Part shown: one piece after another, positions 628-57,038 of the stretch
Layout of the letters: each line of letters begins with the position of its first letter
How positions within the stretch are numbered: the stretch's first letter is position 1
DNA from: an uncultured Acidobacteriota bacterium
GTDB taxonomy: Bacteria > Acidobacteriota > Thermoanaerobaculia > Multivoradales > SZUA-115
DNA: 64,000 bases
Reading direction: 5' to 3'
Assembly (NCBI GenBank): GCA_963805975.1
Contig: CAWDVR010000004.1
Location: forward strand, 525,069-589,068
Position numbers and translations under genes: made by a program
The notes under the pieces: model-generated
Told to the model about the DNA's origin: nothing
The model's database searches: none
The model's input: the letters and a program-made list of their open reading frames with translations, nothing else

Positions 628-696
628 CCCGCGCTCCCGAGCCGGGCGACCCACAAGCCCCCTGCTCCAAACCCGACACTAACGCGCCTCTTAAGC

Positions 697-2133: not shown

Positions 2134-2996
<863 letters not shown>

Positions 2997-2997
2997 G

Positions 2998-5381: not shown

Positions 5382-5382
5382 G

Positions 5383-6109: not shown

Positions 6110-6150
6110 CCCCGGCCGTGAGCTGAGTAGGTCACCCTCCGTCTTTTACT

Positions 6151-9543: not shown

Positions 9544-9744
9544 GCTTTATCTCCAGGTTAGGTCGTCGAGCTTACTACGATTGTCGGCGGAGAAGGTTGC
9601 CGGCGGGTTTGCGGCCCCCCGGCTTATACCCTATGCTTGCAGCCGCTTGCGGCTCCCCGAGCACCACGGAAGCTAGCGTCTAAGACTACACAGCTCCTAA
9701 GGCTATAAATCCCGCCGCTCCACGCTGGGAGAAGGGCTCTCTCG

Positions 9745-10725: not shown

Positions 10726-10743
10726 CTCACGAAGGACGAAGGA

Positions 10744-11226: not shown

Positions 11227-11235
11227 GGAGGCCCC

Positions 11236-38295: not shown

Positions 38296-40983
38296 TCAAT
38301 GCTCTACGAGCTCGGCCGCCACCGGGTTTCGCGGGCCACCCAGGAGCGCCCCCAGGCCGAGGAAGCTTCCCAGGCGCGAGCCCAGGAGGCCGCCCTGGGC
38401 CGTCGACACCAGCCGGATGCGGTTCGCCTCGCCGTAGGCGCAGGTGAGGAACGGCGCCCCGAGGTCGAGGTCGGACATCGCCTGCCGCTGCTCCGGGCTC
38501 ATCCCCGGCTCGACCATCGACAGCACCTGGTTGCCGAGCGACCCCAGGTTGCCGTAGACCACGGCCGAGAAGTCCAGGTAGCCGTCCGCCGGCAGGAGCG
38601 CCTTGAAGCTCGGGGCGTCGGGCAGTGAGTACTGCGAATCGCGTACCGCGAGCGCCCGGTCGAGGAGCGCCCGGCTGGGGGCGGCGATGAAGTAGCCGCC
38701 GTCGAAGGTGTAGCTCACCTCCACCAGGGCGATCGGCGTCGAGACGCGGTAGTAGGTGCGCCCGCCGACGGTCTCCTCGCCGAGGGTCACCCCCGGCTTG
38801 CCGGCGGCGGTCGCCGCCCGGTTGGCCTCGGCCACGGCCCAGACGATCGCCTGCTGCATGCGGGCGGCGTCGTAGACCTCGGCCACCACCTTCCAGGCTG
38901 GCGTCGGCAGGGCCGGGCCGTCGAGCGCGAAGGCGATCTCGCCGCCCAGCGGCGCCGCCAGGTCGTCCACCACGCTCACCCCGTGCTCGCGCTCGAAGCT
39001 GGCCAGGTGCTCGCGGAAGCCGGGCTCGGCGGCCTCGACGAAGCGGAAGGTCTCGCCGAGGATGGTCGCCGGGTTCTCCACCACGAAGGCGGCGGCGAAG
39101 TTGGCGTCGGCCGAGATGAAGTCCAGGGTCCCCATCGCCGCCGGCGCCGCCAGCCAGGACAGCGCGCCGCTCCTCGGGCCGTCGAAGTCGAGCACGCCGC
39201 CGGTGTGGGCCACGTCCTCGTTGACCTTGCGCTCGACGATCAGGTGCTGGACGTGGTCGAGGCCGGTGAAGGCCAGGGCGCCGCGGTCGCCGTGCGTGCT
39301 TTCCGCGGCCTCGCGGTCGAGGATGCGGCCGAGGTCGATGCCCGCCAGCCATTGCGCGCCGTGCGAGTAGGACTCTTCCAGGCGCTCGCCCAGGCCGGAG
39401 CCGGCGAAGCCGCTGGCGCCGGGAGCGGCCAGCCGTGCCGCCAGGGCCTGGAGCGAGGCGAGATCCGGGGCCGCGGCGAAGAGGTCGCCCGCCGGCCACA
39501 GCAGCAGCTCGTGATGAGCGGCCGGGGCCGCAGTCGCCGGGTCGGTGACGACGCGCAGCGTGATGCCGGCCCCGCCCTCGCCGTTCAGCCGCTCGACCTC
39601 GCTCGCCAGCACGGCCGCGAACGACGCCGGGTTGGCCACCTCGGCGAGGAGCAGCGGCGCGCGCGGCTCGCGGTCCGCCGCCAGGTCCATCGCCACCACG
39701 ATCTCCTCGCCCAAGTGCTGGCCCAGGCCGGCCAGCCGCCGGATCATCTCGGCCACCTGGCGGTCGGCGCCGGAGGCGCCCACCCGCTCCTGCCACCACT
39801 CGGCCAGCACTTCGTTTCCGGCCAGGCGCTGTTCGAAGATCTGGTAGGCGTCGGCCAGCTCGGTGGTCACGTTCGGCAGTCCGAGATAGATCGCCGTCTC
39901 CGGCGGCGCCAGCGGCAGCAGGCGGCTGTCGTAGCGCAGGCCGGTCGCGGCGAGCACGCGGCTCACCTCGCGGTCCAGGGCCTTGAGCTCGGAGAGGAGA
40001 GCCAGGTAGCGCTCGCGGTTCCGGCTCCAGGAGACCTCCTGCTCGACCGAGGCCGCGGTGTTGCCCTCGCGGGTCGCCGCCTGGTCGCCGGAGTGGAGCA
40101 CCCGCTCGTCGTCGCCCTGCTCGACCCGGACCTCGCCCTCGACCACTGCCACCCGCGAGCCCTTGGTGCCGTGGTTGACCGAGAAGATCGTGCCGGTGAC
40201 CGAGACCAGGCAGTCGTCGGTGGCGACGAAGAGGTGCCCGTGCTGCTTGGCCGCCTCGACGATGATGCCGCCGCGCGCCACCCGGATCGTGGTCTCGCCG
40301 CCGCGCTCGGCCACCGAGAGGGCGGATCGCTCGCGCAGCTCCACCTTGGAGCCGTCGCCCAGGCGCACCACGGCGCCCGAGTCCTTGCCGGTGCGGATCT
40401 CCTGGCCCTCGGCGATCGACTCGCCCGGCGCCAGGGGCTTCGTCTCGTCGCCCACCAGGCGGAAGAGCTGGCCTTCGACGGCCGCCACCTGGGCGATCGA
40501 GGAGCTACGGCCCAGGAAGTCGCCCCACTGCAGCACCGCAGTGGTGCCCACGGCCACCAGCACGGCGGCGGCGAGCGCCAGCCAGCCGCGGGAGATCAAC
40601 GGCCGCGCGGCGGTCCGGCGAAAGCCCGGCTCCGCGGCGCCGCTCCGGGCCACCTTCAGAGCGCGGCGGCAGGCGATGCACTCACGGCCGTGGTCCTCGA
40701 GCAGCAGCGCCTTGGCCGGGGCGAGCGCACCCTGGAGGTAAGCGGGGACCAGCGCCTGGTAGTCGGCGCAGGCGGCGAGCTGTGCGCCGGCCTGGGCAGC
40801 GACGGCGGCCTGGGCGGGGGCGAAGGCAGGCGCCGCGACGGACTCGCGGGCCAGCCGCTCGCGCACGCGGTGGGCCGCGGCGCGCTCCAGCTCGGGGGCC
40901 AGCTCGGCGGAGGCCACGGCGGCGATGGCCGCGTCGAGCGCGGCGTCGGTCGTCTGGGGAAGATCGCGGTCACGGTCGTTCAT
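38296..40983 (-). CDS. anti-sigma factor: zf-HC2 + transmembrane + FecR domain + ~600-aa uncharacterised C-terminal domain
   Basis: N-terminal HGRECIACRR zinc-finger motif; transmembrane helix (LALAAAVLVAVGTTAVL); FecR-like region (RLGDGSKVELRERSALSV...); long uncharacterised C-terminal region. Start overlaps the stop of the upstream ECF sigma gene. Confidence 0.75.
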   Translation of the reverse strand: MNDRDRDLPQTTDAALDAAIAAVASAELAPELERAAAHRVRERLARESVAAPAFAPAQAAVAAQAGAQLAACADYQALVPAYLQGALAPAKALLLEDHGRECIACRRALKVARSGAAEPGFRRTAARPLISRGWLALAAAVLVAVGTTAVLQWGDFLGRSSSIAQVAAVEGQLFRLVGDETKPLAPGESIAEGQEIRTGKDSGAVVRLGDGSKVELRERSALSVAERGGETTIRVARGGIIVEAAKQHGHLFVATDDCLVSVTGTIFSVNHGTKGSRVAVVEGEVRVEQGDDERVLHSGDQAATREGNTAASVEQEVSWSRNRERYLALLSELKALDREVSRVLAATGLRYDSRLLPLAPPETAIYLGLPNVTTELADAYQIFEQRLAGNEVLAEWWQERVGASGADRQVAEMIRRLAGLGQHLGEEIVVAMDLAADREPRAPLLLAEVANPASFAAVLASEVERLNGEGGAGITLRVVTDPATAAPAAHHELLLWPAGDLFAAAPDLASLQALAARLAAPGASGFAGSGLGERLEESYSHGAQWLAGIDLGRILDREAAESTHGDRGALAFTGLDHVQHLIVERKVNEDVAHTGGVLDFDGPRSGALSWLAAPAAMGTLDFISADANFAAAFVVENPATILGETFRFVEAAEPGFREHLASFEREHGVSVVDDLAAPLGGEIAFALDGPALPTPAWKVVAEVYDAARMQQAIVWAVAEANRAATAAGKPGVTLGEETVGGRTYYRVSTPIALVEVSYTFDGGYFIAAPSRALLDRALAVRDSQYSLPDAPSFKALLPADGYLDFSAVVYGNLGSLGNQVLSMVEPGMSPEQRQAMSDLDLGAPFLTCAYGEANRIRLVSTAQGGLLGSRLGSFLGLGALLGGPRNPVAAELVEH

Positions 40984-41585
40984 AGCGTGGTACCTCCGAG
41001 GAGCGGTTCGAGCTCACGGCCCAGCCGGTGCCGGGTGCGGTGTAGGATGACGGCGACCGCGGTCTGCGAGGTGCCGAGCATCTCGGCGATCTCGCGGTTG
41101 CCGTGGCCTTCGAAGTAACGGAGCGAAAAGATCTCGGCGGCGCGCGGGGAGAGGGCCGCCACCTTCGAGCGCAGCCAGCCGGCGAGCTCGCGGCGGCGGC
41201 GGTCTCCCTCGGGCCCGGCCTCCGGGGCCTCGGCCAGGTCCGCGGCCACCTCGTCCAGGTCCACCGCCCGGGCGCGTTTCCTGGCCCTAAGGAGGTCGAG
41301 GGCGGCGTTGACCGCTGCCCGGTAGAGATAGCTGGCGGCGCCGGAGGAGAGGTCGATCTCCTCCTCCCGCCGGATCAGCCGCGTGAACACGGTCTGCAGC
41401 ACGTCCTCGGCGTCGGTCGCATTGCCCGTCACGCGGTAGGCGATGCGCAGGATGCGGGAGTGGTGCTGCTCGAAGAGCTCGCCCACCGCGGACTCTCCGG
41501 GAGCCTCGAAAGGCCCGGGAGGCGCGTGGGTGGGTTGGTGGACGGCGGCGATCAAGGGCTCCTCCTTCTTCGGGTCTCTAGCCAT
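40980..41585 (-). CDS. ECF (sigma-70 family group IV) RNA polymerase sigma factor
   Basis: Region 2 (ELFEQHHSRILRIAYRVTGNATDAEDVLQTVFTRL) and region 4 (SLRYFEGHGNREIAEMLGTSQTAVAVILHRTRHRL). Start at MARDPKKE, preceded by GGAGG. Confidence 0.85.
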   Translation of the reverse strand: MARDPKKEEPLIAAVHQPTHAPPGPFEAPGESAVGELFEQHHSRILRIAYRVTGNATDAEDVLQTVFTRLIRREEEIDLSSGAASYLYRAAVNAALDLLRARKRARAVDLDEVAADLAEAPEAGPEGDRRRRELAGWLRSKVAALSPRAAEIFSLRYFEGHGNREIAEMLGTSQTAVAVILHRTRHRLGRELEPLLGGTTL

Positions 41586-41855
41586 AGAACGCCTCCAGTC
41601 GCGGATTCTTACCAGGCATACGAAGATGGGGACTGGTTCGGTTCGAGCTCGCAATGCCCTGGGAGGCGCGCAGCGTTACACACGAGTAGGTACCTGGAAC
41701 TCCCACGAAATCCCTTAAATCACTGCCACTGTTGACTTTGGAGTCGGACTGAGTATGTTCTTGTCCCATGAGCTACGCCCGAGTTGCGCGCCCACTGCAT
41801 GCCCCTCGCATGCCGTGGAGCGTGCCCGAAGGCGGCCTCGAACAGGGAGGAGAGC

Positions 41856-43088
41856 ATGCGAGTCAAGTTCAGTAAAGCCACTCTTGCCAACGCGAAGCCG
41901 GGTCCGACGCGATACCTTCTTCGAGATACCCGCACCGTGGGGCTCGCACTCAAGGTTGAGCCCTCGGGCACGCGGACCTTCGTCTTCGAGTACCGAGTCC
42001 CCGGCAAGCCGTCGCAGCGCTACAACATCGGCCGCTACGGCGAGCCCTGGACTCTGGAGCAGGCCCGGGCCGAAGCCGGACGATTGCGCTCACTCGTGGA
42101 CCGTGGCCTCGATCCGCTGACCGAGCGGCGGAAAGAGGCCAGCGAGGGCCGCAGTCTGGCAGAGCTTGGCGAGATGTTCCTCGCTCACGTCGAGAAGTGT
42201 GGGCGCCGGCCTGCCACGCTCTACCGCTATCGCCGGCTCCTGAGGCAGTTCATCCTTCCGCGCCTGGGTCTGCTGCGAGTGGATCAGATCGGCGTCGAGC
42301 ACGTCGAGCGCCTCCATGGGGCTCTTCAGAAGACTCCCGTCCAGGCCAACCTGGTCTTGGTGGTCCTGGGTTGCTGCTTGACGCTGGCGGAGCGTTGGGG
42401 GTGGATCCCTCGGGGCTCGAACCCGGTGCGGTGGGTGGAGCGCTATCCGAGGCGCAGGCGCGGGGAGAAGAAGGGCGTGATGCTCAAGCCCGAGCAGATG
42501 GCTCGGCTCTTGGCGGTACTGGACGAGGAGGAGCGAGCCGGGCGTGATCCGCTCGCGATCGGTGCGATGCGGCTTGCCTTCTGGACGGGGTGGCGAGCGA
42601 AGAGCGAGATTCTGCCTCTCCAATGGGCGAACCTCGATCTCGAGGGCGGCGAGGCGAGGCTTCTCGGCACGAAACGGGCCGAGGAGGAGTACCGGATGCT
42701 CTGCGATGAAGCGGTCGCGGTGCTGCGGTCCCTGCCGCGCATCGACGGCAGCCCGTGGGTTTTCCCTGGGATCGATCCTGCGAGGCCGCGTCGAAACCTC
42801 CAGTGGTTCTGGGAGCGGGTGCGCAGGAAGGCCGGCCTGGTGGGCTTGGAGGAGCTAGGTAACTTCCGGCTCCATGACCTGCGTCACAACGTCGTCAGTT
42901 GGGACGTATCGCGCGGGGTGAGCTTGAAGGTGGCGGGCGCCAACGTCGGCCACAAGTGCCAACAGTCCACCGAGGTCTACGCCCACTTCCTGCCGGCTCA
43001 TCTAAGAGACGCGGCCAACGCGCGCTCCCAGGCCATGCGGCAGGCCCTGGAGGCCGCGCAAGGCCGCAGCGAGCAGGAGGAGGTGTGA
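41856..43088 (+). CDS. int: tyrosine-type site-specific integrase (phage integrase family, P4-like with N-terminal arm-binding domain)
   Basis: GGGAGG Shine-Dalgarno before ATG. N-terminal DUF4102-like arm-binding region. Catalytic-domain motifs (LRLHDLRHNVVS, HKCQQSTEVYAHF with the catalytic Tyr). Confidence 0.85.
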   Translation: MRVKFSKATLANAKPGPTRYLLRDTRTVGLALKVEPSGTRTFVFEYRVPGKPSQRYNIGRYGEPWTLEQARAEAGRLRSLVDRGLDPLTERRKEASEGRSLAELGEMFLAHVEKCGRRPATLYRYRRLLRQFILPRLGLLRVDQIGVEHVERLHGALQKTPVQANLVLVVLGCCLTLAERWGWIPRGSNPVRWVERYPRRRRGEKKGVMLKPEQMARLLAVLDEEERAGRDPLAIGAMRLAFWTGWRAKSEILPLQWANLDLEGGEARLLGTKRAEEEYRMLCDEAVAVLRSLPRIDGSPWVFPGIDPARPRRNLQWFWERVRRKAGLVGLEELGNFRLHDLRHNVVSWDVSRGVSLKVAGANVGHKCQQSTEVYAHFLPAHLRDAANARSQAMRQALEAAQGRSEQEEV

Positions 43089-43250
43089 GGATGCCCAGGT
43101 CCAACCAACGCGCTCTAGCAGCCCGTGGGCCGCCTGGAAGCGATGTCTGCTTCGAAGACCGCGGCCCCCAAGCCGCACCCAGAAACCAAGCGGGCCGACC
43201 GAGTGCGTGAACACCCGGCCGACCCTAGCCGACCATGGAGCCGTAACCCC

Positions 43251-43688
43251 ATGACCGACCGAGAGCAGTCTACCGCTGCCGCAATACCTCTACCCGATCC
43301 CCCTCCACCCCCCGAGGAGCCGCCCTCGCCGCCTTCGCCCTTGGATGCCTGGGAGGAGCTCCAGCCCATCCGAGAGACGTTCCTCCACCACGTGGGCAAC
43401 GCCGAGACTCAGCAGGCTCTCCGCGCGATTGGCGATTACTTCTACCAGGCCGTTCTCGAATGGCGGAACTTCCCCGACGCGGAAACACCGATCATCCTGC
43501 TGGAGCTCGAAGCCGTGGCCAAGGACGTGCGCTATCTCCAGGGCTTTCTGCACCACACGGTGGCCGACGACGGCCGGGGCACTCTGGCCGATGCCCGGTA
43601 CGAGCGCTGGCTCAAGGTGAAGGCCGAGGAGTGGGCCGACACCCTCGGCGAGGTCGCCACCGAGATCGAGAAGGCGGTGGCGGAATGA
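43251..43688 (+). CDS. hypothetical island protein (Pro-rich N-terminus, helical C-terminus)
   Basis: ORF with PLPDPPPPPEEPPSPPSP followed by a helical region. An alternative GTG start at 43125 is possible. Confidence 0.4.
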   Translation: MTDREQSTAAAIPLPDPPPPPEEPPSPPSPLDAWEELQPIRETFLHHVGNAETQQALRAIGDYFYQAVLEWRNFPDAETPIILLELEAVAKDVRYLQGFLHHTVADDGRGTLADARYERWLKVKAEEWADTLGEVATEIEKAVAE

Positions 43689-44511
43689 AGCCCGCCTGCC
43701 GGAGGTCCGAGCGCCTCCAGCGACCCACCTAGAAACACTCTCTACGCCGCCCGGGCCTCCAGGAAACAGGAGAGCCCGGCGGCTTCCCCCAGCTCTCCGA
43801 AACACGACCTGTCGGACCACTGGAGGCCACCTGAGGACGCGCTGCCGGAGGGAGGGGACTCGCGAGGCCCGCCCCAAGCTGCGGCTGGAGTGGCCGTCCC
43901 TCGCAGACTCGGGTACGCGCCAGGCGCTCCGCACGCCCCACGCCGGCGGCCCCCCTCACCTCGGCCCTGCCGCCGTCCTGGGGCGTGCTGTGGGTCGCTG
44001 TCCGGGAATGGCCATTCCCGGACCTGTCGCTCGGCCAGCCTAGCCTTGGCCCTCGCTGTGCGAGGGCTTGGACATAACGCGTGGCGCTATGTCAACTTGG
44101 GCGGGGTGTCAGGGCCTGCGGCCGGCCCCGGCTTCGGCATCTCGCCGGACACTCTATGTCAGTGTTTGTTCGCGGATTCTGAGTCAGGATCAGCAGAGTC
44201 GCTCTAAGCTCAAAGGATCTATTTACGCCGGCTTGATCGAGTGGCCTATCGGGCCTAGATTGACGGCATACGCTTAGCATGCGGTCTGGCGGACGACAGA
44301 AGGCTAGTTAGCGGACTAGCCCGACAGGGCGATCCTGACTCGCGGCGGGGCGAAGATGTCAGGGGGCGAGAACTATCCTCGCCCGAACTCGGTCCGTGTC
44401 GCAGTCACCCAACGGGTTAGCATCAGTAGCGGAACGCGCGTTCTGCGGTTCTGTCTGCTGCAGGCCCCGAGTTGGCCGACCTTTGCGATTCGAGACGATC
44501 GAACGATTCCC

Positions 44512-44703
44512 CTACCGGTCCTTGTTGCCCTTGCGGTACTTGTCGCCAGCCGCCTTATCTGCCCCATCCTTACTGACGCCTTTTCCAGAGTAGGTTGCGC
44601 CCCCTTTGTGGATCGTAGTCTTGTGAGCTTCGCCGATTCCCGTCCCGAGGAACGACGCGCTCATACGGCTGACCTTGTCCGGGCGACTACCCTTTTTGCT
44701 CAT
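44512..44703 (-). CDS. small basic Gly/Lys-rich protein (KGG-repeat stress-protein-like?)
   Basis: 63-aa ORF with a strong AAGGAGG Shine-Dalgarno 7 nt upstream of ATG. Sequence is rich in K/G/D with HKGGATYSGKG. Confidence 0.45.
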   Translation of the reverse strand: MSKKGSRPDKVSRMSASFLGTGIGEAHKTTIHKGGATYSGKGVSKDGADKAAGDKYRKGNKDR

Positions 44704-44790
44704 GGAATCCTCCTTTGATCACCGGCCGAGGGTATCACCCTCTCTGAGGCTGTGGCTTGCTGGCCACCGCTTTCTTAGACCGCTCACTTC

Positions 44791-45366
44791 TCATCGCAGT
44801 ATGGCAATTCGGGCTACAGACGCGACCAAGCTGCCGGCGCCAACCGCGATGGGTACCCACCGCTCAAGAACGGCACGCACTGAAAGAACTCGGAAGTGCT
44901 GATCGATCTCGGCACGAAAGAGCCGTGTGAACTCAGCGCGCTTCCCGCCCAGCCAGACCTCGAACTCTTCAGGATTCTCGTCTGGTTCCGGCGCGAGATT
45001 CGTGTACTGAGCGGCTAGCCTTGCGGCGGAACTTGAAAAGACACGCTCGCGGTCCATGGCCCAAGCCTTTAGATCGGCCGTGCTGTAGATCCAGAATGCC
45101 GTCAGTAAGTAGATCTGCACCGCGCAGAGAACTCCAAGCAGTCTGCCGGTATCACCGGCCGAGAGTTCGACGCCCAATGCATCGATCCTGGAGGGGATCA
45201 CCCCTCCAACCGCGACCACGAGTTGCGTAACGCTGACGGTTAGCAATGCCCGCCTCTCTTTGCGCGACTCCTCTGACAGAGGATCTACGAGGGCCCTCGC
45301 CTCAGTGATTTCGGCCCGTTCTTCCTTTTCCCAGATCTTCGGCATCGGTTCCTCATTGCCGGCCAA
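44791..45366 (-). CDS. hypothetical membrane protein (two predicted transmembrane helices), island cargo
   Basis: 191 aa. Transmembrane segments LLTVSVTQLVVAVGGVI and LLGVLCAVQIYLLTAFWIY. Lies 25 nt downstream of the preceding cargo gene on the same strand. Confidence 0.5.
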   Translation of the reverse strand: MAGNEEPMPKIWEKEERAEITEARALVDPLSEESRKERRALLTVSVTQLVVAVGGVIPSRIDALGVELSAGDTGRLLGVLCAVQIYLLTAFWIYSTADLKAWAMDRERVFSSSAARLAAQYTNLAPEPDENPEEFEVWLGGKRAEFTRLFRAEIDQHFRVLSVRAVLERWVPIAVGAGSLVASVARIAILR

Positions 45367-45391
45367 CGGCTACCCGTCTGATCGCGTGGCG

Positions 45392-46246
45392 TCAGCCGCT
45401 CGCTCCAGCCGGTTGATTGGGCATCTTTAGGGCGCCCTTCTCTTCAGGCCAAGCTCGCTCAAACCAAGAATAGTGAGCTCCGTCCGGATCCTCGAAGTCT
45501 TCGCACGCCACCCAGATCTCCGCCTCGGGCCTCCTCGCTAGGCTCGCGACCAAGGCTCTCCACCAGGCTTCCCCGGCGTGTGCAACGGAGCCTTGCGGAT
45601 CAAGCAGCACGACTTGGCGATCGTTGCTGTACGCCGCAAACTTTTTCATGGCCGAGGCAAGGAGTCTCTCGAGCTCAGCTGTGAGCTCCGCGGGAATCGG
45701 CCTCGGCGCCTGCCACATCTCCAGCGGCAGCAGGAATCTCACGCTGGTCTCGTGGGCGTACTCATCAAGATCTGATTCGCGAAGGTGCCGCAGACTCCAG
45801 TTCGGCTGGCCCCTCTTCTCGATCCCCTGGCCAGCCTCCAGAACCGACCAGTGCTCTGCAACGATTCGTGCCATCTGCCCCACCGTCTCCTCAATCTCCG
45901 CTCTCCGAGTAGGCCGATCGCCGGATATTGCGAGCTCATAAGGGCCATCGAGCACGGCAGTTGGGAGAGCTGCACGAAGGGCACCAATCAGGGCATGATC
46001 TGACGAATGTCGGACTACGTACTCGGCCGGCCACACAAGGCACTTCCGCTCGATAACCATCCGACCCCTGCATCGGTCGCAGTACAGTGCTTCAGGCTGG
46101 GGCGTATCCCGGATCCGTATGTCGAGACAAGTGACGTGCTCATACGCAGAGCCCTCGACATCGTTAAGCTGTTCGACTAAGGGCTGAACGCGCCAGAACT
46201 CGCAACCGCCACTCTCGGGTAAACAGCTCATTAGTCCCCCACGCAC
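45392..46246 (-). CDS. hypothetical protein with N-terminal Cys cluster, island cargo
   Basis: 284-aa ORF in the lower-GC region. N-terminal C...C / CxxC arrangement (CLPESGGCEFW...CDRCRGRMVIERKC). No recognisable family. Confidence 0.45.
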   Translation of the reverse strand: MRGGLMSCLPESGGCEFWRVQPLVEQLNDVEGSAYEHVTCLDIRIRDTPQPEALYCDRCRGRMVIERKCLVWPAEYVVRHSSDHALIGALRAALPTAVLDGPYELAISGDRPTRRAEIEETVGQMARIVAEHWSVLEAGQGIEKRGQPNWSLRHLRESDLDEYAHETSVRFLLPLEMWQAPRPIPAELTAELERLLASAMKKFAAYSNDRQVVLLDPQGSVAHAGEAWWRALVASLARRPEAEIWVACEDFEDPDGAHYSWFERAWPEEKGALKMPNQPAGASG

Positions 46247-46821
46247 GTCGCGCCCAAATCAGTGCTCTGCATTGGACGGTCCAGGCCTCCAGGATCCTTG
46301 AGATCCTCACTTGTTCGTCGAGGTCCTAGAGGGGTTAGGGCTATGTCCATGCGAATCGATTTCGGATGCCAGTACTTAGCAGCATTCTACGCCTACTTGA
46401 ATAAGAGTCAACGAGGCCGAGAGCCCTGGCTTGGTGCCTCGCCCCAAGACCCCGCCTGAGCTCGCTATCGCTCGGCTCTTCCGGCTGCATGAAGAGCGAC
46501 TGAAATACGGTTCACATTTGAACCTTGGTCTCTCTGTCTCACCTCTGGTACCTCTTTGCCCCATGCGCGGAGCCTGGATACCCAACCTCTCGGAGCTTGT
46601 CCGTTCAGCCCTCTTGGAGCGTCCCTCTCAGCGACCGCGGGGGGCCGAGGACGAATCTCGCCCCCTACAGCAAGCTCCTGCGTCCAGCCTCCTCGCCGTC
46701 GGTCGGTCGCTGCGAGTCAACTTCTTGCCGCCGCCTGGGCTCCGAAGAGGAGCCACCGGCAGCAAAGCATTGCCTTGGAGGGTAAGCGACGGATTTCTCC
46801 TCTGGCTCGGGCTCACCGTTC

Positions 46822-46953
46822 CTGACGACGAAGCAAGCCGCCGCGTACCTGCGCCTGGAGCCCAGCACGCTCGAGAGCTGGCGTTCCGTCGGAGGCGGCC
46901 CTGTGTTCCACAAGCTCGGCGGGCGCATCTACTACACCCGCGCCGACCTCTAG
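46822..46953 (+). pseudogene. AlpA/excisionase-family HTH (MerR-like) ORF lacking a canonical start; possibly degenerate xis
   Basis: Translation (F)LTTKQAAAYLRLEPSTLESWRSVGGGPVFHKLGGRIYYTRADL matches the excisionase/AlpA HTH_17 pattern. An in-frame TAA lies about 13 codons upstream of the HTH with no ATG/GTG/TTG between (only a CTG at 46822). The ORF stops right after the conserved RADL. Confidence 0.45.
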
Positions 46954-47116
46954 GCTTGGATTGAGTCCCGGCGTTGCCGATCGACTGCCGAGCACTGGGC
47001 GAGAAGGTCAAGGGATCGTCCTACCGAGCGCTCCGGCTTCCTCGGTCGAACCTCGAAACCGTAACGGTCGGGTGCTGCCGGCCGGTGCCGCTCCGAAGGA
47101 CTCGGAGGAGTCGGCC

Positions 47117-50100
47117 TCACCGCCGCAGGCGTACGCGGGCCTCCTCGCCTTCTGCCAGCACGTCTCGAATCCAGTGACCTGCCCGCTGCGCGATGCTGCG
47201 CCCGAGAGACAAGCTCCAGGTCACGGCGATGTCGAAGGCACGGGGAGCAGCTTCCGCCGAAGCGCGAGCCAGGTTGCCCAAGTGGGAGGCTGCCGCATCG
47301 GGTGGCAATCCACGACTGGAGGCGACCTCGACCCAGGCCGCTCGCCAGGCCAGCTCTGAGACGTCCCGTGGCGGCCGGCCGGGCTCGGGAAGCTCTGCGA
47401 AGGCACGCTGTTGGCCGTCGAGGTGCCGGAGCCAGGTCACGGCCTCGGCCGAGTTGGCGAAGAGCCTGACGGCCTCCTCTGGCCGCAGAGCCTCGCCTCC
47501 GGCGAGCCGCTTCGCCCGTTCCAGGATCTCGGGGGTCAACCGCGCCAGCGCGTCGAGGCCGGCGCGCGGGTCCTCGGTCGGCCTGGCCATGGGCAGTGTG
47601 ATTCGGTGAGCGGGGATCTCGATCAGGAGAGCCGCATTCAGCCGGCGCAGGGCCTCGGGGGAGAGGTCCCCGGCAGCAACCCGCGAGGTGATCTCCGCCA
47701 ACCGCTCGCGGGCCGTGGCCGATTGGATGGCGAGGGCCTCTTCCACGGCTGCCCGCTCCGAAGACTCGACCCGCCACCAGCCGTAGCCGCGAAGCGCCTC
47801 GGCAGGCTCCTGGCGCGTGAGCTCACGGAGCTTCTGCTCCGCACTCGCCGGCCGGGCCTCTCGCGCTTCCGCGCGCTCCAGTAGGAGCTGGGCGACGGTT
47901 CGCTCCTGCAACGACTCCACGGCTTCCGGCCAGCGCTGGGCAAGCCCTCCTTCTGCGCGCAGCCTCGTCCAGTGCGCCTCCAGCTCGCCGAGGTGGGCGC
48001 GACACTCGGCGACGGAAGTCGAGGCGCCTGCCGGCGCCTGGGGCGAAAGCCCAAGCTGGATCAAGAGCCGCGCTTCCCGCCGAATCAATCGCTCGTAAGC
48101 GTTCCAGGTCTCGTCGGGCCGCTCGCGTTCCAGGAGTGCCCAGCCGAAGCGCTCTCGATGGAGGGAGAGCTGTACCAAGGCCAGCCGCGAGTACGCATGC
48201 TCGGCCTGCTCCATCTCTCCCCGAGCGAGACTGTAGGTGTGAGCGAGCGCCTGATAGGCGGAGATCCTCTCCAGTGACGGGGCCGCTTCGATGCTCGCCG
48301 CGGCCGTCTCCACCCGCTGCCAAGCCGAAAACATCTTCCCGCGCGCATCCTCGAAGGCTTGCCGAGCCTCGCGAAGCCTGCCGGCAAGCTCGCCCTCGAC
48401 TACCAGCAACCGGTCTCCAGCCTCCCGCGATCCTCCTGGCTCCCGGGCCAGTGCTTCGGCGATCACCTCCCGATTGACCCTCTGGGCTCGTGCGAGAAAG
48501 TCGTCCACGGGCTCGTAGGTCCCAGCGGCGCCTGGGTCGTGAGGAGACCGCCGCTCTGGAAGTGACAAACGAGCTTCGATGCCGCCCAGACGGCCCGGAG
48601 ATGGAAAGTCAACGCGGGAGTAGTGGAGCGGGATCTCCGCGCGAGCGAGAGGCGCTTCGAGGCGTGGAGTGTCCAAACGTCGTAGCCGCTCGTGTAGATC
48701 CTCGCGGCGTTCGCTGCGCAGCCCGTCGAGCCAGGGCCGCGACGCCGAGAACGGCTCCTCCCGTACCTCGGCAAGCCTCACTCGGACCCGCTCGCCAGCC
48801 GCTTCGAACGAGGTTCCGGGGAGTCGGATGGCATCTCGGAATATGCCCCGCGGCTCTGCGATGCCGAAGCGGTCCGCGAGGCCCTGGCGCAACGCCTGCT
48901 CCTCGTCCTGCGAGAGGGCCTGATGGCTTCGTAGCCACAGGTCATAGCGCTCGCCCGCACGAACCAGGACGGCCGGCTCGAAGCCATGATGGCGCAGAGT
49001 GACCACCTGCTCGGCGGTCAAGTCGCGAAAGGCCACCCTGCGGGACCGGTCCTCGCCGATCCGCCGCGCCAGAATCGCAGCCGCTCCCGAGCGCTCTGCC
49101 CGGCGGGCCTCGGTGAGCGCCTGTTGGAGGGTCAGGCTGCCCCGCGATGGGTCGAGCAAGCGAGCCTCGACCCGCTGCAAACCCTCTGCGGCCTCCTTGG
49201 GGCTCAAGGGCAGCACGATGTAGCTTCCTCCCGGCATGGAGCGGTCCGTGCGAAGCCAGTCGAGCGAGACGAGCTGCCGGGCCGGCAGCTCCGGCCGTTG
49301 GTTGAGCTGCCGCAGATCCTCGGCGCCGTCCGGCTCGTGTTGCAGAGCCTTGCGAAGCCTCCGAGGGCGGGAGCCCTGCTCGGGTGAGCCTTGGGAGGGA
49401 GCACTACCTGCCAGACGAAGCACCTGCTCCCGGTCGCGACCGGGATCGTAGGCGAGCTGGAAGGTGGAGACGAGCTTGCCTGCGCGGAAGGCTCGACCGA
49501 GCTGCGACCCCTTGAAGGCTATGCCATCGCGCGAGAAGGAGATCCCTCTTAGCTCACCATCCTTGTCCAAGAGTACGTGCGTCGAAAACCCTCGGGCTCG
49601 TAACGTCGCCAGAAACTCAGCAAGGGTCCGTGCGTCCCTCGCCACCTGGGCCACTTCCACCTGAAACACGGCCCGCATCGACTCCTCACCCTGCGCGGCG
49701 CGCTTCATCTCGCCTTGGCTGGGACTCTTGAGGAACGCCGCCTCGGGCGGTTCGACTCGCACGAGGTTCCATCGGTTCTCGATCTCGCGGGCGATCCGTA
49801 CACAGCGCAGCTTGTCGAAAGCCTCGGAGATTGGCTGGCCCTCCCAGGTCGTCGGTGTGGTCACGAGGTGCACGTGGTCGTTGTCGGTGTCCTTGTGGAG
49901 GAAGGCCACGTAGGGCGCTTCGCCGTAGCCCATCCTTTGGAGGAAGAAACGCACCGCCTCTCGCATCTCGTCGTCCGGCCGATGCTCGCCGGTCGCGTAC
50001 GAGAGGACGAAATGCTTCACGAACTGCTTCTTCCTGGACCGATAGGTACTGTTGACATCCGTGATCCAGCTCGCCCACTCGCTGGGGGTGGAGCCTGGGA

Positions 50101-50200
50101 TGTTGGCGTCCAAGAGAAAGGCGTTGGGTCGTGCCGTGCGCCCAAGGTAGTCGATCAGCCGCCGAGGCTGCGAGCCCACCTTGCACAGCTTCACGATCAC
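47117..50200 (-). CDS. MobA/VirD2-family relaxase (mobilisation nuclease) with ~700-aa C-terminal extension
   Basis: N-terminal relaxase domain (FVKHFVLSYATGEHRPDDEM...APYVAFLHKDTDNDHVHLVTT) including the His-rich metal-binding motif. 1027 aa. Start overlaps the mobC stop. Confidence 0.8.
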   Translation of the reverse strand: MIVKLCKVGSQPRRLIDYLGRTARPNAFLLDANIPGSTPSEWASWITDVNSTYRSRKKQFVKHFVLSYATGEHRPDDEMREAVRFFLQRMGYGEAPYVAFLHKDTDNDHVHLVTTPTTWEGQPISEAFDKLRCVRIAREIENRWNLVRVEPPEAAFLKSPSQGEMKRAAQGEESMRAVFQVEVAQVARDARTLAEFLATLRARGFSTHVLLDKDGELRGISFSRDGIAFKGSQLGRAFRAGKLVSTFQLAYDPGRDREQVLRLAGSAPSQGSPEQGSRPRRLRKALQHEPDGAEDLRQLNQRPELPARQLVSLDWLRTDRSMPGGSYIVLPLSPKEAAEGLQRVEARLLDPSRGSLTLQQALTEARRAERSGAAAILARRIGEDRSRRVAFRDLTAEQVVTLRHHGFEPAVLVRAGERYDLWLRSHQALSQDEEQALRQGLADRFGIAEPRGIFRDAIRLPGTSFEAAGERVRVRLAEVREEPFSASRPWLDGLRSERREDLHERLRRLDTPRLEAPLARAEIPLHYSRVDFPSPGRLGGIEARLSLPERRSPHDPGAAGTYEPVDDFLARAQRVNREVIAEALAREPGGSREAGDRLLVVEGELAGRLREARQAFEDARGKMFSAWQRVETAAASIEAAPSLERISAYQALAHTYSLARGEMEQAEHAYSRLALVQLSLHRERFGWALLERERPDETWNAYERLIRREARLLIQLGLSPQAPAGASTSVAECRAHLGELEAHWTRLRAEGGLAQRWPEAVESLQERTVAQLLLERAEAREARPASAEQKLRELTRQEPAEALRGYGWWRVESSERAAVEEALAIQSATARERLAEITSRVAAGDLSPEALRRLNAALLIEIPAHRITLPMARPTEDPRAGLDALARLTPEILERAKRLAGGEALRPEEAVRLFANSAEAVTWLRHLDGQQRAFAELPEPGRPPRDVSELAWRAAWVEVASSRGLPPDAAASHLGNLARASAEAAPRAFDIAVTWSLSLGRSIAQRAGHWIRDVLAEGEEARVRLRR

Positions 50201-50598
50201 GGCGACTCTCCAGCCGCCCTCTCGCCACCCAGCACGGCGAAGATTGTCTCCAGGAGCAGCCGAAGCCTCTCGAGGGTCGGAGCCAGGGCCTCCGGCGCCC
50301 GATGGGTGTAGGTGAGGACGAGAAGTTGGTTGAGATTGTTGCCCAGCCGGTTGAGCTCCCCGATCAGGCGCAGGTCGACCGCGGAGCGTGCGGGGCGCAC
50401 TCGGTGTCGCAGTCCTAGCTCTCGGAGGTAGGAGGAGACCGCCAACCCTGCCGCAGTAGCCGACTCCTCAAGCGTAGCGAGCTCCGTGGGTGAGAGCCGA
50501 ACTCGACAACCGAGGTTGCGCCGCTCAGGCTCGGGCAACTGGGGCCGGCCTCGCTGGCGAGGTCGGACACCCGATCCTTGGCGCAGTGTGTCGCTCAA
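50197..50598 (-). CDS. mobC: MobC-family relaxosome accessory protein
   Basis: Signature (LIGELNRLGNNLNQLLVLTY) plus N-terminal RHH-like region (VRLSPTELATLEESA). 133 aa. Confidence 0.8.
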   Translation of the reverse strand: MSDTLRQGSGVRPRQRGRPQLPEPERRNLGCRVRLSPTELATLEESATAAGLAVSSYLRELGLRHRVRPARSAVDLRLIGELNRLGNNLNQLLVLTYTHRAPEALAPTLERLRLLLETIFAVLGGERAAGESP

Positions 50599-50639
50599 CT
50601 CGTCGCCACTCCGGGACCGGGGCAGGAGCGCTCCTCACT

Positions 50640-50830
50640 TTGCGGCTGGTCAAATTTACGGCCGTAAACGCGGCCCGATAGTCGAGGGGTCCAGCCTGAA
50701 AAATTTTGGCCCCAAAATTCGCACAAGTACCTCAGCGAGAGCTGTTCGGTTAGGACTCGCCGGCGTGAAGTTGAAATCGGTCCGCTTCCGTTTACGGTTC
50801 GTAAATCTGCGCCATCGTCTCGGCGAGCGC
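50640..50830. promoter_or_regulatory. candidate oriT / mob promoter region with two related palindromes
   Basis: Perfect 14-bp palindrome TTTACGGCCGTAAA (50664-50677) and related GTTTACGGTTCGTAAAT (50790-50807) immediately upstream of mobC, the usual oriT position. Confidence 0.45.
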
Positions 50831-51255
50831 GGTGGGTCAGAACTCGCCGCAGAAGCCTCTTCCCGAGCGGAGCGAGCGCTTCCGGGGGTCCAGGGGCTCG
50901 CCCCTGGCAAGCGGCCCGTGAGCTTGCGAGCGGGGGTTTTTCGTGCAACGAAAAAACAGCTTGCTCGTCTGCTCCGGATGCGCTCACGAAGGCAGGCTAC
51001 GGTGGCTTCGACAAACCGCGCAACTGTCGGACCGAGGAAGAAAGAAGAGGTTGTATCGAGCTCCTGGAAACCTGATGAATTTCACTCCGTCGAGGAAGCG
51101 GCAGGCACCTCGCTCCAAGGATGCTTACGGGCGCTGAAGACCAATTGAGAGGAGACGGTGGCCCCCAGGCCCGACCCTTGGTGTGTAACTAATGGGCAGC
51201 AATGCAGCACGCACGTGGAGGTGGGTTGGTTTGGATTTGCTAGCATGCGGCAATC

Positions 51256-54200
51256 GTGAACAACCTGGCGGCGGCAGAGAGGCGGGTCGAAGATGCGTTG
51301 CGCACCAGACTGGAACATCTGGACCTCGGAGACCTAGCCCTAGAGCGCTTACCCACGCGCCTGCGAGAGCTCACTCATCTCCGAGTCTTGGCTCTGGGAT
51401 GCCTCCGACTGAGAGACGATGGGACTTTCGAGTGGGACAGCGATAGACAGCCTCCGTCCTTTTCCGACCTGTCAGCCTTGGCCGGGCTCCAAGGACTTCA
51501 GAGTCTGAACCTCAGCTACTGCGGGGGCGTGACGGACCTGTCTGCCTTGGCCGGGCTCCAAGGCCTCCAGAGGGTGGACCTCAGCTACTGCGGGGGCGTG
51601 ACGGACCTGTCTGTCTTGGCCGGGCTCCAGGGCCTCCAGAGCCTGAACCTCAGCTTCTGCAAGGGCGTGACGGACCTGTCTGTCTTGGCCGGGCTCCCAG
51701 GCCTCCAGAGCCTGTACCTCAGCGGCTGCGAGGGCGTGACGGACCTGTCTGTCTTGGCCGGGCTCCCAGGCCTCCAGAGCCTGTACCTCAGCGGCTGCGA
51801 GGGCGTGACGGACCTGTCTGTCTTGGCCGGGCTCCCAGGCCTCCAGAGCCTGGACCTCAGCGGCTGCGAGGGCGTGACGGACCTGTCTGTCTTGGCCGGG
51901 CTCCAAGGCCTCCAGAGCCTGAACCTCAGCGGCTGCGAGGGCGTGACGGACCTGTCTGTCTTGGCCGGGCTCCAAGGCCTCCAGAGCCTGTACCTCAGCG
52001 GCTGCGCGGGCGTGACGGACCTGTCTGTCTTGGCCGGGCTCCAAGGACTCCAGAGCCTGAACCTCAGCTCCTGCGCGGGCGTGACGGACCTGTCTGTCTT
52101 GGCCGGGCTCCAAGGACTCCAGAGCCTGAACCTCAGCTTCTGCAAGGGCGTGACGGACCTGTCTGTCTTGGCCGGGCTCCCAGGCCTCCAGAGCCTGTAC
52201 CTCAGCGGCTGCGAGGGCGTGACGGACCTGTCTGTCTTGGCCGGGCTCCCAGGCCTCCAGAGCCTGTACCTCAGCGGCTGCGAGGGCGTGACGGACCTGT
52301 CTGTCTTGGCCGGGCTCCCAGGCCTCCAGAGCCTGGACCTCAGCGGCTGCGAGGGCGTGACGGACCTGTCTGTCTTGGCCGGGCTCCAAGGCCTCCAGAG
52401 CCTGAACCTCAGCGGCTGCGAGGGCGTGACGGACCTGTCTGTCTTGGCCGGGCTCCAAGGCCTCCAGAGCCTGTACCTCAGCGGCTGCGCGGGCGTGACG
52501 GACCTGTCTGTCTTGGCCGGGCTCCAAGGACTCCAGAGCCTGAACCTCAGCTCCTGCGCGGGCGTGACGGACCTGTCTGTCTTGGCCGGGCTCCAAGGAC
52601 TCCAGAGCCTGAACCTCAGCTTCTGCAAGGGCGTGACGGACCTGTCTGTCTTGGCCGGGCTCCAAGGCCTCCAGAGCCTGGACCTCAGCTACTGCCGGGG
52701 CGTGACGGACCTGCCTGGCTTGGCCGGGCTCCAAGGCCTCCAGAACCTGGATCTCAGCTTCTGCCGGGGCGTGACGGACCTGTCTGTCTTGGCCGGGCTC
52801 CAAGGCCTCCAGAGCCTGGACCTCAGCTACTGCCGGGGCGTGACGGACCTGTCTGCCTTGGCCGGGCTCCAAGGCCTCCAGAGCCTGAACCTCAGCTCCT
52901 GCCCGGGCGTGGCGGACCTGTCTGCCTTGGCCGGGCTCCAAGGCGTCCAGAGCCTGAACCTCAGCGGCTGCGAGGGCGTGACGGACCTGTCTGCCTTGGC
53001 CGGGCTCCAAGGCGTCCAGAGCCTGAACCTCAGCGGCTGCGAGGGCGTGACGGACCTGTCTGCCTTGGCCGGGCTCCAAGGCCTCCAGAGCCTGAACCTC
53101 CGTAACTGTAAGGGCGTGACGGACCTGTCTGGCTTGGCCGGGCTCCAAGGCCTCCAGAACCTGAACCTCAGCTCCTGCCCGGGCCTGATGGACCTGTCTG
53201 CCTTGGCTGGGCTCCAAGGCCTCCAGAGCCTCGACTTCAGCGACCGCCAGGGTGTGACGGACCTGTCTGCCTTGGCCGGGCTCCAAGGCCTCCAGAGCCT
53301 GAACCTCAGCGACTGCCTGGCCGTGACGGACCTGTCTGCCTTGGCTGGGCTCCAAGGCCTCCGGAGCCTGAACCTCTACTCCTGTCGGCCGCCGATCGAA
53401 AACACCGTTCTTCGGAACCTGGTGGCAAGCCCTCGGCTAGCGAGCCTCATCTGCGACGAGGGGGAGAGCATGCCGCGAGAGGTTCTCTCGCATGAGTCCG
53501 ATGAAGACTGTCTCCCACGTCTCCGTAGCTTCTTCGCTGAGATCGACCGAGGCGCAGAGGCGGAGCGGGAAGTGAAAGTGATCCTGCTAGGCAACGGCTG
53601 TGTTGGGAAGACTCAGCTCTGTCGTCGGTTTCGCGATCAGCCTTTCGACGAAGCGATTGGATCGACTCACGGAGTCCAGATCTGGCGGGACGAGCTCCGA
53701 CTCCCATCGCGTGGCGAGCCAGAGAATGCATTTCAGGTGAACTGGTGGGACTTCGGCGGACAGGACATCTACCACGGCACGCATGCGCTTTTCCTACGCA
53801 GTCGCGCCGTGTTCCTGCTTCTCTGGACCCCACAGCTCGAGAACCGCGACGAATACACGGAGCAGGGCATCCCGCTACGCAACCAACCCCTTGCCTACTG
53901 GCTGGACTACGTCCGTACTCTGGCTGGCGACGGCAGCCCCGTGATTGTGGTGCAAAGCAAGTGCGACACCTTCAAGCACGAGCTCTCAGCTCCGAATAGG
54001 CCCGAGGGACTCGAATTCTTCCGCTGTTGCGCCTACAGTGCCGTCACGGATTTTGGCAGAGAAGTTCTCGAAGTCCAGCTCCGCGAAGCGGTGCGCTTCC
54101 AGCTTGAGAAAACCGGCTCTCTAGCCATCGGACACGCTCGCGCTGAGGTTCGCCGCCGGCTCTATCAGATGCGCAGCGAGGACCAGGAACAAAGACCAGA

Positions 54201-55743: not shown

Positions 55744-56157
55744 GTTCACCTTCCGCCGGACGCGATGAGAACGGGCCTTGATGACACCCTGCTGCCCTAC
55801 TGAAGGGTCGCCAGAGAAGTAGACATCGACCGCGACTTGAGAACCCTCAAGATCGCATGCTGAGCGCATGCCGATGTCGCGCGGCAAGAGAATGCCTTCG
55901 CCGCCATCTCAGGAAGTTATAGATTCGATGGGGGCTTAGCGTGGCCCTCATCCGAGCCGTTCATCTCATACTGAGATCGCAGCGTTACCCGAAGGGGGCG
56001 TCGAGCACCGCATCAGGGCCTTGCGAGCTCGAACCGAACCGCCAGACCGGGTGTGCTTGGTTCCCGCGCCGGCCCTCGTGTACGCTTTCCATGCATGGCC
56101 GTGCATGAACGTTTTTCTTTCCCTCTTTGCCGTCTATCTACCCTGGAGGCCCTCACC

Positions 56158-57033
56158 TTGAGACGGACCCACACCGCTTGGCAAGTGCTCCGCCTGCTCG
56201 TCCCCGCTCTCGTCCTGGTCGCTGCCTCGGCCGCCCAGGCCCAGGAAGAAAAGAAGCTCGGCTGGTCCGACACCGCCGAGCTGGCGCTGGTGGCCACCGC
56301 CGGCAACTCGGAATCGTCCACCCTCGGCCTCAAGGACACCCTCTTCCACGGCTGGGAGAACGCCCGCTTCCAGCTCGACCTGGGAGCGCTGCGGGCCAAG
56401 ACCAGCACCTTCAGCCGGACGGCGATCGGCACCGGCGCCGGGGACTTCGTGCTGATCGAGGACGAGGAGAGCAAGCTCACGGCCGAGCACTACTTCCTGC
56501 GCGGCCGGTATGAGAGGGACCTCTCCGCGGCCTTCTACTGGTTCGGGGGCGCCGGCTGGGAGCGCAACGAGCTCGCCGGCTTCAGGAGCCGCACCTCGGC
56601 CGTCGGCGGCGTGGGCCGGGTGTGGCTCGCCGGCGAGACGGCGCGCTTCAAGACCGACGCCGGTCTCACCTTCACCGACCAGGACGATGTCACGGACAAT
56701 CCCGCCGCCGACTCCCAGTTCCTGGGCGTTCGCCTCTCCTACGACTACTGGCGCAGGCTCACTGCCTCGACCGAGTACGCGAGCGTGCTGATCGTGGACC
56801 TGAACGCGGACGAGACCGACGACCTGCGCGCCGACTTCACCAATTCGGTGGCAGTGTCGATGTCCGAGCGCCTGGCTCTCAAGGCAGGCCTGCAGCTCCT
56901 GTTCGACCACCAGCCGGCCCTGGCCGCGGTGCCGATCATCCGCCCCGACGGCACCCCGACCGGTGCCGTGGCCTTCGCCGAGCTCGACGACCTGGACTCG
57001 ATCTTCACCGTCTCCCTGGTCGCCAGCTTCTAG
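56158..57033 (+). CDS. outer-membrane beta-barrel protein, DUF481 (YdiY-like); start TTG (or ATG at 56095)
   Basis: GGAGG 10 nt upstream of TTG gives a typical signal peptide (RRTHTAWQVLRLLVPALVLVAASAAQA). DUF481-like alternating beta-strands, ending in F. Confidence 0.7.
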   Translation: MRRTHTAWQVLRLLVPALVLVAASAAQAQEEKKLGWSDTAELALVATAGNSESSTLGLKDTLFHGWENARFQLDLGALRAKTSTFSRTAIGTGAGDFVLIEDEESKLTAEHYFLRGRYERDLSAAFYWFGGAGWERNELAGFRSRTSAVGGVGRVWLAGETARFKTDAGLTFTDQDDVTDNPAADSQFLGVRLSYDYWRRLTASTEYASVLIVDLNADETDDLRADFTNSVAVSMSERLALKAGLQLLFDHQPALAAVPIIRPDGTPTGAVAFAELDDLDSIFTVSLVASF

Positions 57034-57038
57034 ATCTC

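Follow-up and report, generated by a model that had tools for sequence, protein, structure and literature searches.

Why should a mobile element be framed by a long inverted repeat that lies outside its own ends? The question is raised by a 64,000-nt stretch of contig CAWDVR010000004.1 from an uncultured Acidobacteriota bacterium (assembly GCA_963805975.1, positions 525,069 to 589,068; hereafter the window), in which an island of ~14.3 kb separates a gene for an extracytoplasmic function (ECF) sigma factor from a gene for a DUF481 outer-membrane protein. A short direct repeat marks the two island ends, and beyond it lie two 27-nt arms that are near-perfect reverse complements of each other. 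An initial annotation had taken the two sites for the junctions of an inserted island and proposed that the palindrome restored by its removal was either the integration target or a shared operator of the two flanking genes. Here, we describe the island as an ordinary integrase-driven integrative mobilizable element (IME). The explanation of the arms that we favor, while giving it about an even chance of being correct, is that they are the halves of a strain-specific host quasi-palindrome of ~97 bp, split by the 14.3-kb IME, and that this palindrome is a by-product of rearrangement and likely functionless.

Two inverted arms in host DNA flank an integrated element

The left arm (41635..41661) and the right arm (56014..56040) are 27 nt each and complementary at 26 of 27 positions. 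They are the only two copies in the 64 kb when up to three mismatches are allowed, compared with none in 100 shuffles. The inverted repeat is thus real, as first described, although the figure of 27 of 28 positions falls to 26 of 27, since the additional CT at 41633-41634 does not pair with 56041-56042. Each arm contains an 8-bp perfect palindrome, CGAGCTCG, and in the host DNA the left arm precedes the -35-like hexamer of the sigma gene by 22 nt. No inverted similarity extends past the 27-nt arms, with the outer flanks scoring 7.0 against 7.2 for shuffles, and no target-site duplication is seen outside them, the likeness between the flanking sequences (...GGGGACT and GCCAGAC...) being no greater than in shuffles.

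Inside the arms lies an 11-bp direct repeat, CGCAGCGTTAC, present in exactly two copies in the 64 kb where 0.03 would be expected. Both copies are exact and on the forward strand, one at 41669..41679 (attL) and the other at 55978..55988 (attR); the left copy had been placed one base off, at 41670-41680, and the repeat itself stands. As the coordinates confirm, the arms sit just outside these repeats. On the left, the host spacer GGAGGCG (41662..41668) leads from the arm to the core, and a GGGAGG/GGAGGC motif is found at the same place in two relatives of the locus, L014 and L001. On the right, a host spacer of 25 nt (55989..56013) leads from the core to the arm, and its alignments to L001 and to a further relative, L004, are no better than those of shuffles. 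Removing the island (41680-55988) leaves the arms 43 nt apart (7 nt, the 11-mer and 25 nt) in the order left arm-GGAGGCG-CGCAGCGTTAC-CCGAAGG...-right arm. The arm-spacer-arm structure that had been predicted for the empty site is therefore recovered, as a hairpin-capable palindrome of 97 bp with 27-bp arms and a 43-nt spacer holding the core. A 107-nt reconstruction of the site folds as a hairpin with a 27-bp stem at -40.9 kcal/mol, compared with -21.9 +/- 2.9 for shuffles (z = -6.6).

The DNA between the repeats has the hallmarks of an IME. Its ~14.3-kb body (41680..55977) has a guanine-cytosine (GC) content of 0.58-0.72, compared with 0.70-0.77 in the flanks, and it occurs in circularly permuted form in another contig, L012. 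Gene content, the drop in GC, the direct repeat and the joint in L012 all agree with the view that the two sites are island junctions, and they support the 11-mer as an att-type direct repeat of the island. The integrase gene (41856..43088, + strand) starts 177 nt from attL and encodes a P4-type tyrosine integrase of 410 aa with Pfam matches to Arm-DNA-bind_3 (E = 3.3e-16) and Phage_integrase (E = 6.5e-16). The protein has an exact match, P0244, belongs to a small family from metagenomes of the same kind, and shows a TGWR motif, an HDLRH motif and the tyrosine in EVYAH directly in its sequence. We rejected a tRNA, tmRNA or known RNA as the integration target: ARAGORN detected no tRNA or tmRNA gene in the window, and no Rfam family was found at E <= 1 in window 40500-57500, L001, L012 or L014.

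A circular relative places both arms in the chromosome

The 11.4-kb contig L012 (ENA ERZ25039550) represents the window island in circularly permuted form, at 95% identity overall and ~97% in the integrase. Its positions 1-7839 correspond to window 48086-55962 at 95% identity and positions 7839-9946 to window 41674-43787 at 93%, and the contig ends at the equivalent of window 47913, ~170 nt from its beginning at 48086. The joint connects window 55962 to 41674 (...CTCATCCGGAGCCGTTC|GTTAC|ACACGAGTAGGTACC..., in a shorter rendering ...GAGCCGTTC|GTTAC|ACACGAG...), and therefore everything outside 41669-55988, both arms included, is chromosomal. No arm-like sequence occurs in the L012 attP. A near-identical element thus exists as a circle or a tandem copy, and since its right and left ends fall at the window junctions, the ends of the window island are confirmed independently.

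The two elements differ in their att cores, which read CGCAGCGTTAC in the window and GCCGTTCGTTAC in L012, each variant matching the site of its own host. They also differ at the right end, where the window island carries an extra 21 nt (55963..55983) missing from the L012 attP joint. These consist of ATCTCATACTGAGAT, 15 nt that form a perfect palindrome, followed by CGCAGC, which overlaps the attR core at 55978-55983. The attP joint predicted for the window element, ...CTGAGATCGCAGCGTTACACACGAG..., would be 21 nt longer than that of L012. Conservative exchange cannot derive both attL and attR of the window from an L012-type attP, because the stretch common to both sides is then reduced to 1 nt; it follows that the attP of the window element must have contained CGCAGCGTTAC. 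The GTTAC of the core is common to the left-end boundaries of L010 and L012, and the left ends of the window island and of L010, whose integrase is 81% identical, both begin GTTACA. L010 has a back-to-back pair of different P4-type integrase genes at 8049-11236, separated by 620 nt, an arrangement that suggests two islands inserted next to each other at a single attachment site. This 620-nt stretch includes a tRNA/tmRNA-like 3' fragment (...GGTTCGAGTCCTCCAGGGTGCACCA, ~9690-9722) and a 27-bp direct repeat, GTTGCTCTATCGTTGCCAGAAAACATG, at 9493 and 9792.

Related cores are present at this locus in relatives without this island. The flanking genes, an ECF sigma/FecR pair and DUF481, are also found in L001 (GCA_044869805.1), with 81% identity to the window for DUF481 and 93% for sigma, and in L004/L005, with 69% and 66%. 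L001, L002 and L003 each have a single copy of the 12-nt L012 core, in intergenic DNA ahead of sigma (L001 8923-8934), and L004 has GTTCGTTACGGG at the corresponding place, which argues that the island family uses the sigma-upstream region repeatedly. The region appears to be a recurrent attachment hotspot for the family, and a highly rearranged one. The related cores in L001 (GCCGTTCGTTAC) and L004 (GTTCGTTACGGG) lie in opposite orientation and ~30 nt from the equivalent window position, and the GTTAC of the window is oriented relative to the sigma gene opposite to that of L001, L004 and L014. Read as its reverse complement (GCCCCC-TTCGG-GTAACG), the window spacer is similar to GCCCCCGTAACG in L001; an inversion of the spacer in the window would fit and is possibly what occurred.

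We also observed that in two independent samples short-read contigs end only a few bases from the att core, one on each side of it. Position 1 of L014 (Logan SRR23911157) corresponds to window 41662, and the Logan contig of the DUF481 protein P0001 in ERR12035939 begins at ~window 55981. This suggests that occupied and empty alleles, or variants of the island, coexist in those two communities.

The arms are specific to one lineage

The 27-mer arm is absent from the L001, L002, L003 and L004 loci even with three mismatches allowed, so that the expectation of finding the arms in island-free relatives fails at the loci of L001 and L004. A 20-mer common to both arms was found in two of 185,579 species-representative genomes, a collection evidently without the source genome, once each in a Planctomycetaceae and a Thermoplasmata metagenome-assembled genome; these two matches are chance. 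The 20-mer was absent from JGI metagenome contigs and from IMG/VR contigs, plasmids gave nothing meaningful for the arm sequence, and sensitive blastn found no further arm copy in the window or the fetched loci. Nor is there another copy of the 13-mer arm centre outside coding sequence in the window, and a 16-nt arm-like match at 19414-19429 was set aside as a chance match inside long open reading frames (ORFs). The view of the repeat as a common dispersed sequence thus finds no support in the window, the fetched loci or the genome, metagenome and viral collections searched. On the sequence comparisons made here, the arms are lineage-specific, being absent or diverged in relatives.

The right arm stands where an ancestral gene was lost

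The nearest relative found, L014, has a sigma factor 98% identical to that of the window and covers 72 nt upstream of the sigma ATG. Its collinearity with the window extends across the conserved promoter, then CCTCCC and the left arm, which marks this arm as native DNA. The stretch CCTCCC-GCGCCTTGC-ATCTCG-ACCG of L014 (positions 1-25) matches CCTCCCAGGGCATTGCGAGCTCGAACCG in 21 of 28 alignment columns and is without the CGAGCTCG centre of the left arm. The present form of the left arm is thus not shared with L014 and is probably young. The two arms are 96% alike, and where they differ, at one position, the right arm agrees with L014.

The right arm has a different history. In the relatives L001 and L004, the sigma and DUF481 genes are separated by a gene for a secreted, cysteine-containing protein of 283 or 288 aa without a Pfam family (L001 9058-9909; L004 7927-8793). 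The two products are orthologous at 48% identity, and the gene is therefore ancestral. tblastn detected neither this gene nor a remnant of it in the whole 64-kb window. Homology to L001 resumes at window 56048, 7 nt past the right arm, which corresponds to L001 9916, 7 nt after the stop of the 283-aa gene (1 of 500 shuffles scores as high). Close by, a terminator-like hairpin, CATGCATGGCCGTGCATG plus a T-run (56090..56107, + strand), now has no gene upstream. It is kept in L001 at 9963-9978, downstream of the 283-aa gene, with a stem preserved by compensatory changes (ATGCGCG/CGCGCAT), and its orphaned state fits deletion of that gene. The right arm, host DNA like the left, therefore occupies the deletion junction left by loss of the ancestral gene. 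Approximately 1 kb of ancestral DNA has been swapped for ~70 nt of new sequence, the right end of which is an inverted copy of 27 native nt. No counterpart of the 25-nt spacer or the right arm in L001 or L004 scored better than shuffles, and we rejected a derivation of either from the L001 or L004 sequence.

These observations suggest the following history. The ancestral 283-aa gene was deleted in the window lineage, and an inverted copy of the native left arm placed at the deletion junction as the right arm. The most likely source is an inverted duplication, or else a repair error such as polymerase template switching that homogenized the arms. As reported in PMC8604942 and PMC13100816, the arms of an inverted repeat can be homogenized and expanded, and spacers inverted, when the polymerase switches templates between them, and template switching would be the most economical known source of such a structure. 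The palindrome presumably came first and the island second: the element would have been integrated into the spacer at the 11-bp core CGCAGCGTTAC, through conservative recombination by its tyrosine integrase, and would thereby have split the palindrome. Under this history the arms most likely have no function.

Weighing other explanations for the palindrome

Traffic of islands at this site offers another origin, in which the new 70-nt segment (core, 25 nt, right arm and 7 nt) is a scar of earlier aberrant integration or excision, or of the collapse of tandem islands. The new sequence starts at the att core, the locus is a recurrent attB, cores vary between near-identical elements, 21 additional nt are found in the window attR, Logan contigs from two samples end at the att position and islands stand back to back in L010. 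We consider a scar unlikely nonetheless, as conservative site-specific recombination makes no inverted duplications and the 25-nt spacer and right arm are unlike either island end. The 97-bp unit could instead be one copy of a dispersed palindromic element, akin to miniature inverted-repeat transposable elements (MITEs) or repetitive extragenic palindromic (REP) sequences, with the island targeting its loop. Its architecture fits, with 27-bp terminal inverted repeats, a short non-coding spacer, sharp bounds and replacement of ancestral DNA, and REP sequences are documented targets of insertion sequences (PMC1525189). This origin is quite unlikely given that no target-site duplication adjoins the arms, no second copy exists in the 64 kb at up to three mismatches, the left arm is collinear with native L014 sequence, and the 20-mer occurs in no related genome of the 185,579 representatives and in none of the metagenome or viral contigs. 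The arms were also rejected as ends of a DDE transposon: the direct repeats lie inside the arms, no target-site duplication is seen and no transposase family was matched. Several points weigh against the rearrangement history that we prefer. The homology between L014 and the left arm is modest, with 67 of 1000 shuffles scoring as well anywhere in the target, and the L014 contig stops 7 nt before the core. Arm copies were counted in the 64-kb window of the source genome, so that a low-copy dispersed family is possible. Arms that are 96% self-complementary yet only ~72% like their nearest orthologue are also what selection for pairing is expected to produce. A one-step template switch predicts a copy running past the arm, and the copy stops at the arm; for the other 43 nt of new sequence no template was found. 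Finally, the att core sits at the boundary between native and new sequence, which hints that an island-related event and not a replication error made the new segment. Together with the 21 extra attR nt, the differing cores, the orientation of GTTAC and the contig breaks, this leaves a small probability to an island-driven origin or a structure-dependent attB.

A structure-dependent attB would mean that the long palindrome, as a cruciform or hairpin with the crossover core in the loop, lets the integrase or its cofactors locate or open the target. The core does lie inside the spacer of a very stable hairpin, the L001 core is likewise enclosed by short inverted repeats of 7 bp and 10/11 bp, and tRNA-targeting P4-type integrases classically use symmetric stem-loop sequences. 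Against the target proposal stands the L012 core, GCCGTTCGTTAC: it matches an L001 site that has neither arm nor long palindrome, and since the integrases concerned are ~97% identical, the arms are not needed for targeting. The 7-bp repeat around the L001 core is within chance (157 of 2000 shuffles, or 8%, give one), and an inverted repeat around the core was accordingly rejected as a family trait. Moreover, the window core is 9 nt off the spacer centre, the arms lie 7 and 25 nt from it and thus too far for core-type sites, the L012 attP carries nothing arm-like, and the integrase, which has an arm-binding domain, is a double-strand recombinase of the ordinary P4 type. We therefore hold a structured attB to be improbable, and have very little confidence in the broader idea that the family uses a palindromic attB and may adapt its core to the sigma-upstream site of its host (CGCAGCGTTAC in the window; GCCGTTCGTTAC in L012 and L001); if true, this would be a tyrosine-integrase element that chooses its site by locus architecture instead of by a fixed core sequence. 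The operator proposal, in which both arms serve as binding sites for the joint regulation of the divergent sigma and DUF481 genes, is very unlikely as well. Both arms face their own gene in the same orientation, the 8-bp palindrome CGAGCTCG in each would suit a dimeric regulator, and inverted-repeat expansion near promoters can create transcription-factor sites (PMC13100816). The similar distances of 48 and 54 nt cited for it do not hold, because the right arm is 117 nt from the DUF481 start at TTG 56158 and the left arm 79 nt from the sigma TTG (49 nt from its ATG). The arms are absent in L001 and L004 and have lost their CGAGCTCG centre in L014, although the adjoining sigma promoter motif is conserved in all three; in relatives the 283-aa gene separates the two supposedly co-regulated genes; and the window has no other copy of the 13-mer core at a promoter or elsewhere outside coding sequence. 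The ECF promoter motif is missing upstream of DUF481 and unique to the sigma gene in the window, and a shared ECF promoter was rejected.

Flanking genes and a putative sigma promoter

The left-flank sigma gene (40980..41555, - strand) matches Pfam Sigma70_r2, r4_2 and ECF families, and the gene next after it (38296-40983) encodes a FecR-type anti-sigma protein (Pfam FecR). Upstream of sigma, an ECF-type promoter-like motif, GTAAGA-N15-CGTTCT (41586..41612, - strand), has one exact copy in the window. It recurs with the same spacing, as GTAAG(A/G)-N15-CGTT(C/G)T, in L001 (~8867-8894), L004 (~7530-7557) and L014 (~46-72), and is most simply read as an autoregulated ECF promoter, distinct from the arms. 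ATG 41585 abuts the conserved -10 element. The position of the motif argues for a sigma start at TTG 41555 rather than at ATG 41585, and TTG 41555, which follows a GGAGGAG ribosome-binding site, is most likely the start; the L001 orthologue was called at 190 aa. On the right flank, the DUF481 gene (56158..57033, + strand; Pfam DUF481) starts at TTG 56158 and not at ATG 56095, as the 291-aa product is matched exactly by P0001 and homologues cover it to 100%.

The island carries mobilization genes and a candidate defence gene

Ahead of the integrase gene lies a sigma-70-like promoter, TTGACT-16-TATGTT (41732..41759, + strand), whose motif is kept in L010, L011 and L012. Downstream of it comes a palindromic block, CTGCATGCC.C.CGCATGC, conserved in the same three contigs (window 41732-41816 for promoter and block), which may be the binding site of a regulator. 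Promoter and block occur together in island relatives with integrases down to 70% identical, and scans of metagenomes and IMG/VR for further family members with the promoter motif gave unrelated chance matches only. Just downstream of the integrase, an ORF at 43251..43688 (+ strand) encodes a 145-aa protein, P0246, with no Pfam or PADLOC match and no assigned function. Its 90%-identity cluster includes copies from contigs whose integrases are only 63-81% identical, and P0246 is therefore better conserved than the integrase.

Two genes on the reverse strand point to mobilization. A MobA/VirD2-type relaxase fused to a weak RepB-primase-like region (47117..50200) has a Pfam Relaxase match (E = 1.2e-19), and a NikA-like relaxosome accessory protein (50197..50598) matches Pfam NikA-like (E = 2.2e-19). 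Among the scanned island ORFs, several small ones of which lack a Pfam match, there was no transposase, including HUH transposases, and no mating-pore family, type IV secretion system or coupling protein.

The cargo is a very large protein of 1495 aa (51256..55743, + strand) with domain matches that identify it as LRR-Roc-COR-TIR. Its leucine-rich repeat (LRR) part comprises 28 head-to-tail 69-bp repeats, ~90% identical, that encode 23-residue leucine-rich repeats (51328-53490). PADLOC gives only a weak bSEFIR match, over the TIR region, and the gene may be an uncatalogued defence gene resembling NOD-like receptors (NLRs). In L012, the same cargo region is split into separate gene calls, including products of 1066 aa and 250 aa (TIR).

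Discussion

Taken together, our findings give the palindrome itself a modest importance: an island can be surrounded by a striking inverted repeat of 27 bp that is a young product of host-side rearrangement and not a recognition signal, which is a useful caution for att-site prediction. The element may prove the more useful part. It is a well-delimited IME from an uncultured Acidobacteriota-like lineage, integrated in the window and circularly permuted in a relative, and it carries a possible NLR-like defence gene in the form of its LRR-Roc-COR-TIR protein. The recurrent attachment hotspot in the intergenic region ahead of an ECF sigma gene, and near-identical elements with differing att cores that each fit their own host site, may likewise be of use.

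Several known systems place recombination or insertion in a palindrome. Integron attC sites, the ends of IS200/IS605 elements and the attP of CTX phage are single-strand hairpin sites handled by IntI, HUH Y1 transposases or XerCD, in which the folded strand is the substrate. The window site shares with them a position within an imperfect, hairpin-forming palindrome. It differs in its recombinase, a P4-type integrase with Arm-DNA-bind_3, and in that the target of a close relative has no long hairpin; the P4-type integrase was the only recombinase found among the island ORFs scanned, which speaks against a single-strand hairpin site. REP sequences, bacterial interspersed mosaic elements (BIMEs) and MITEs also serve as insertion targets, for IS1397, ISPpu9 and others (PMC1525189, PMC12288879), and here too a mobile element lies inside the spacer or loop of an intergenic palindrome. 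A genome holds tens to hundreds of copies of such targets, which are used by DDE or IS110-type transposases, whereas the window palindrome is known in one copy and was entered by an element with a P4-type tyrosine integrase.

The arms themselves are reminiscent of quasi-palindrome or template-switch mutations (PMC7202029, PMC8604942, PMC13100816). Compared with them, no ancestral imperfect partner arm could be shown, and the event accompanies a ~1-kb deletion and 43 nt without an identified template. Near-perfect arms, changes clustered relative to an orthologue, sharp arm boundaries, local rearrangement nearby and a possibly inverted spacer, seen in the orientation of GTTAC, are features in common.

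The island compares most closely with IMEs that use tyrosine recombinases. It departs from them in its target, which is intergenic, upstream of an ECF sigma gene, and not the end of a tRNA or housekeeping gene; in att cores that are unlike between near-identical elements (CGCAGCGTTAC in the window, GCCGTTCGTTAC in L012), each matching its own host site; and in host flanks that form a 27-bp inverted repeat. It shares with them a single tyrosine integrase at one end, a GC content lower than that of the host, cargo, and a relaxase with a NikA-like accessory protein and no detected mating-pore genes (PMC5704250). A circular form with a joined att site is seen in the 95%-identical relative, and the 11-bp direct repeats fall within the 8-60 bp range of the flanking direct repeats of such elements (PMC5704250).

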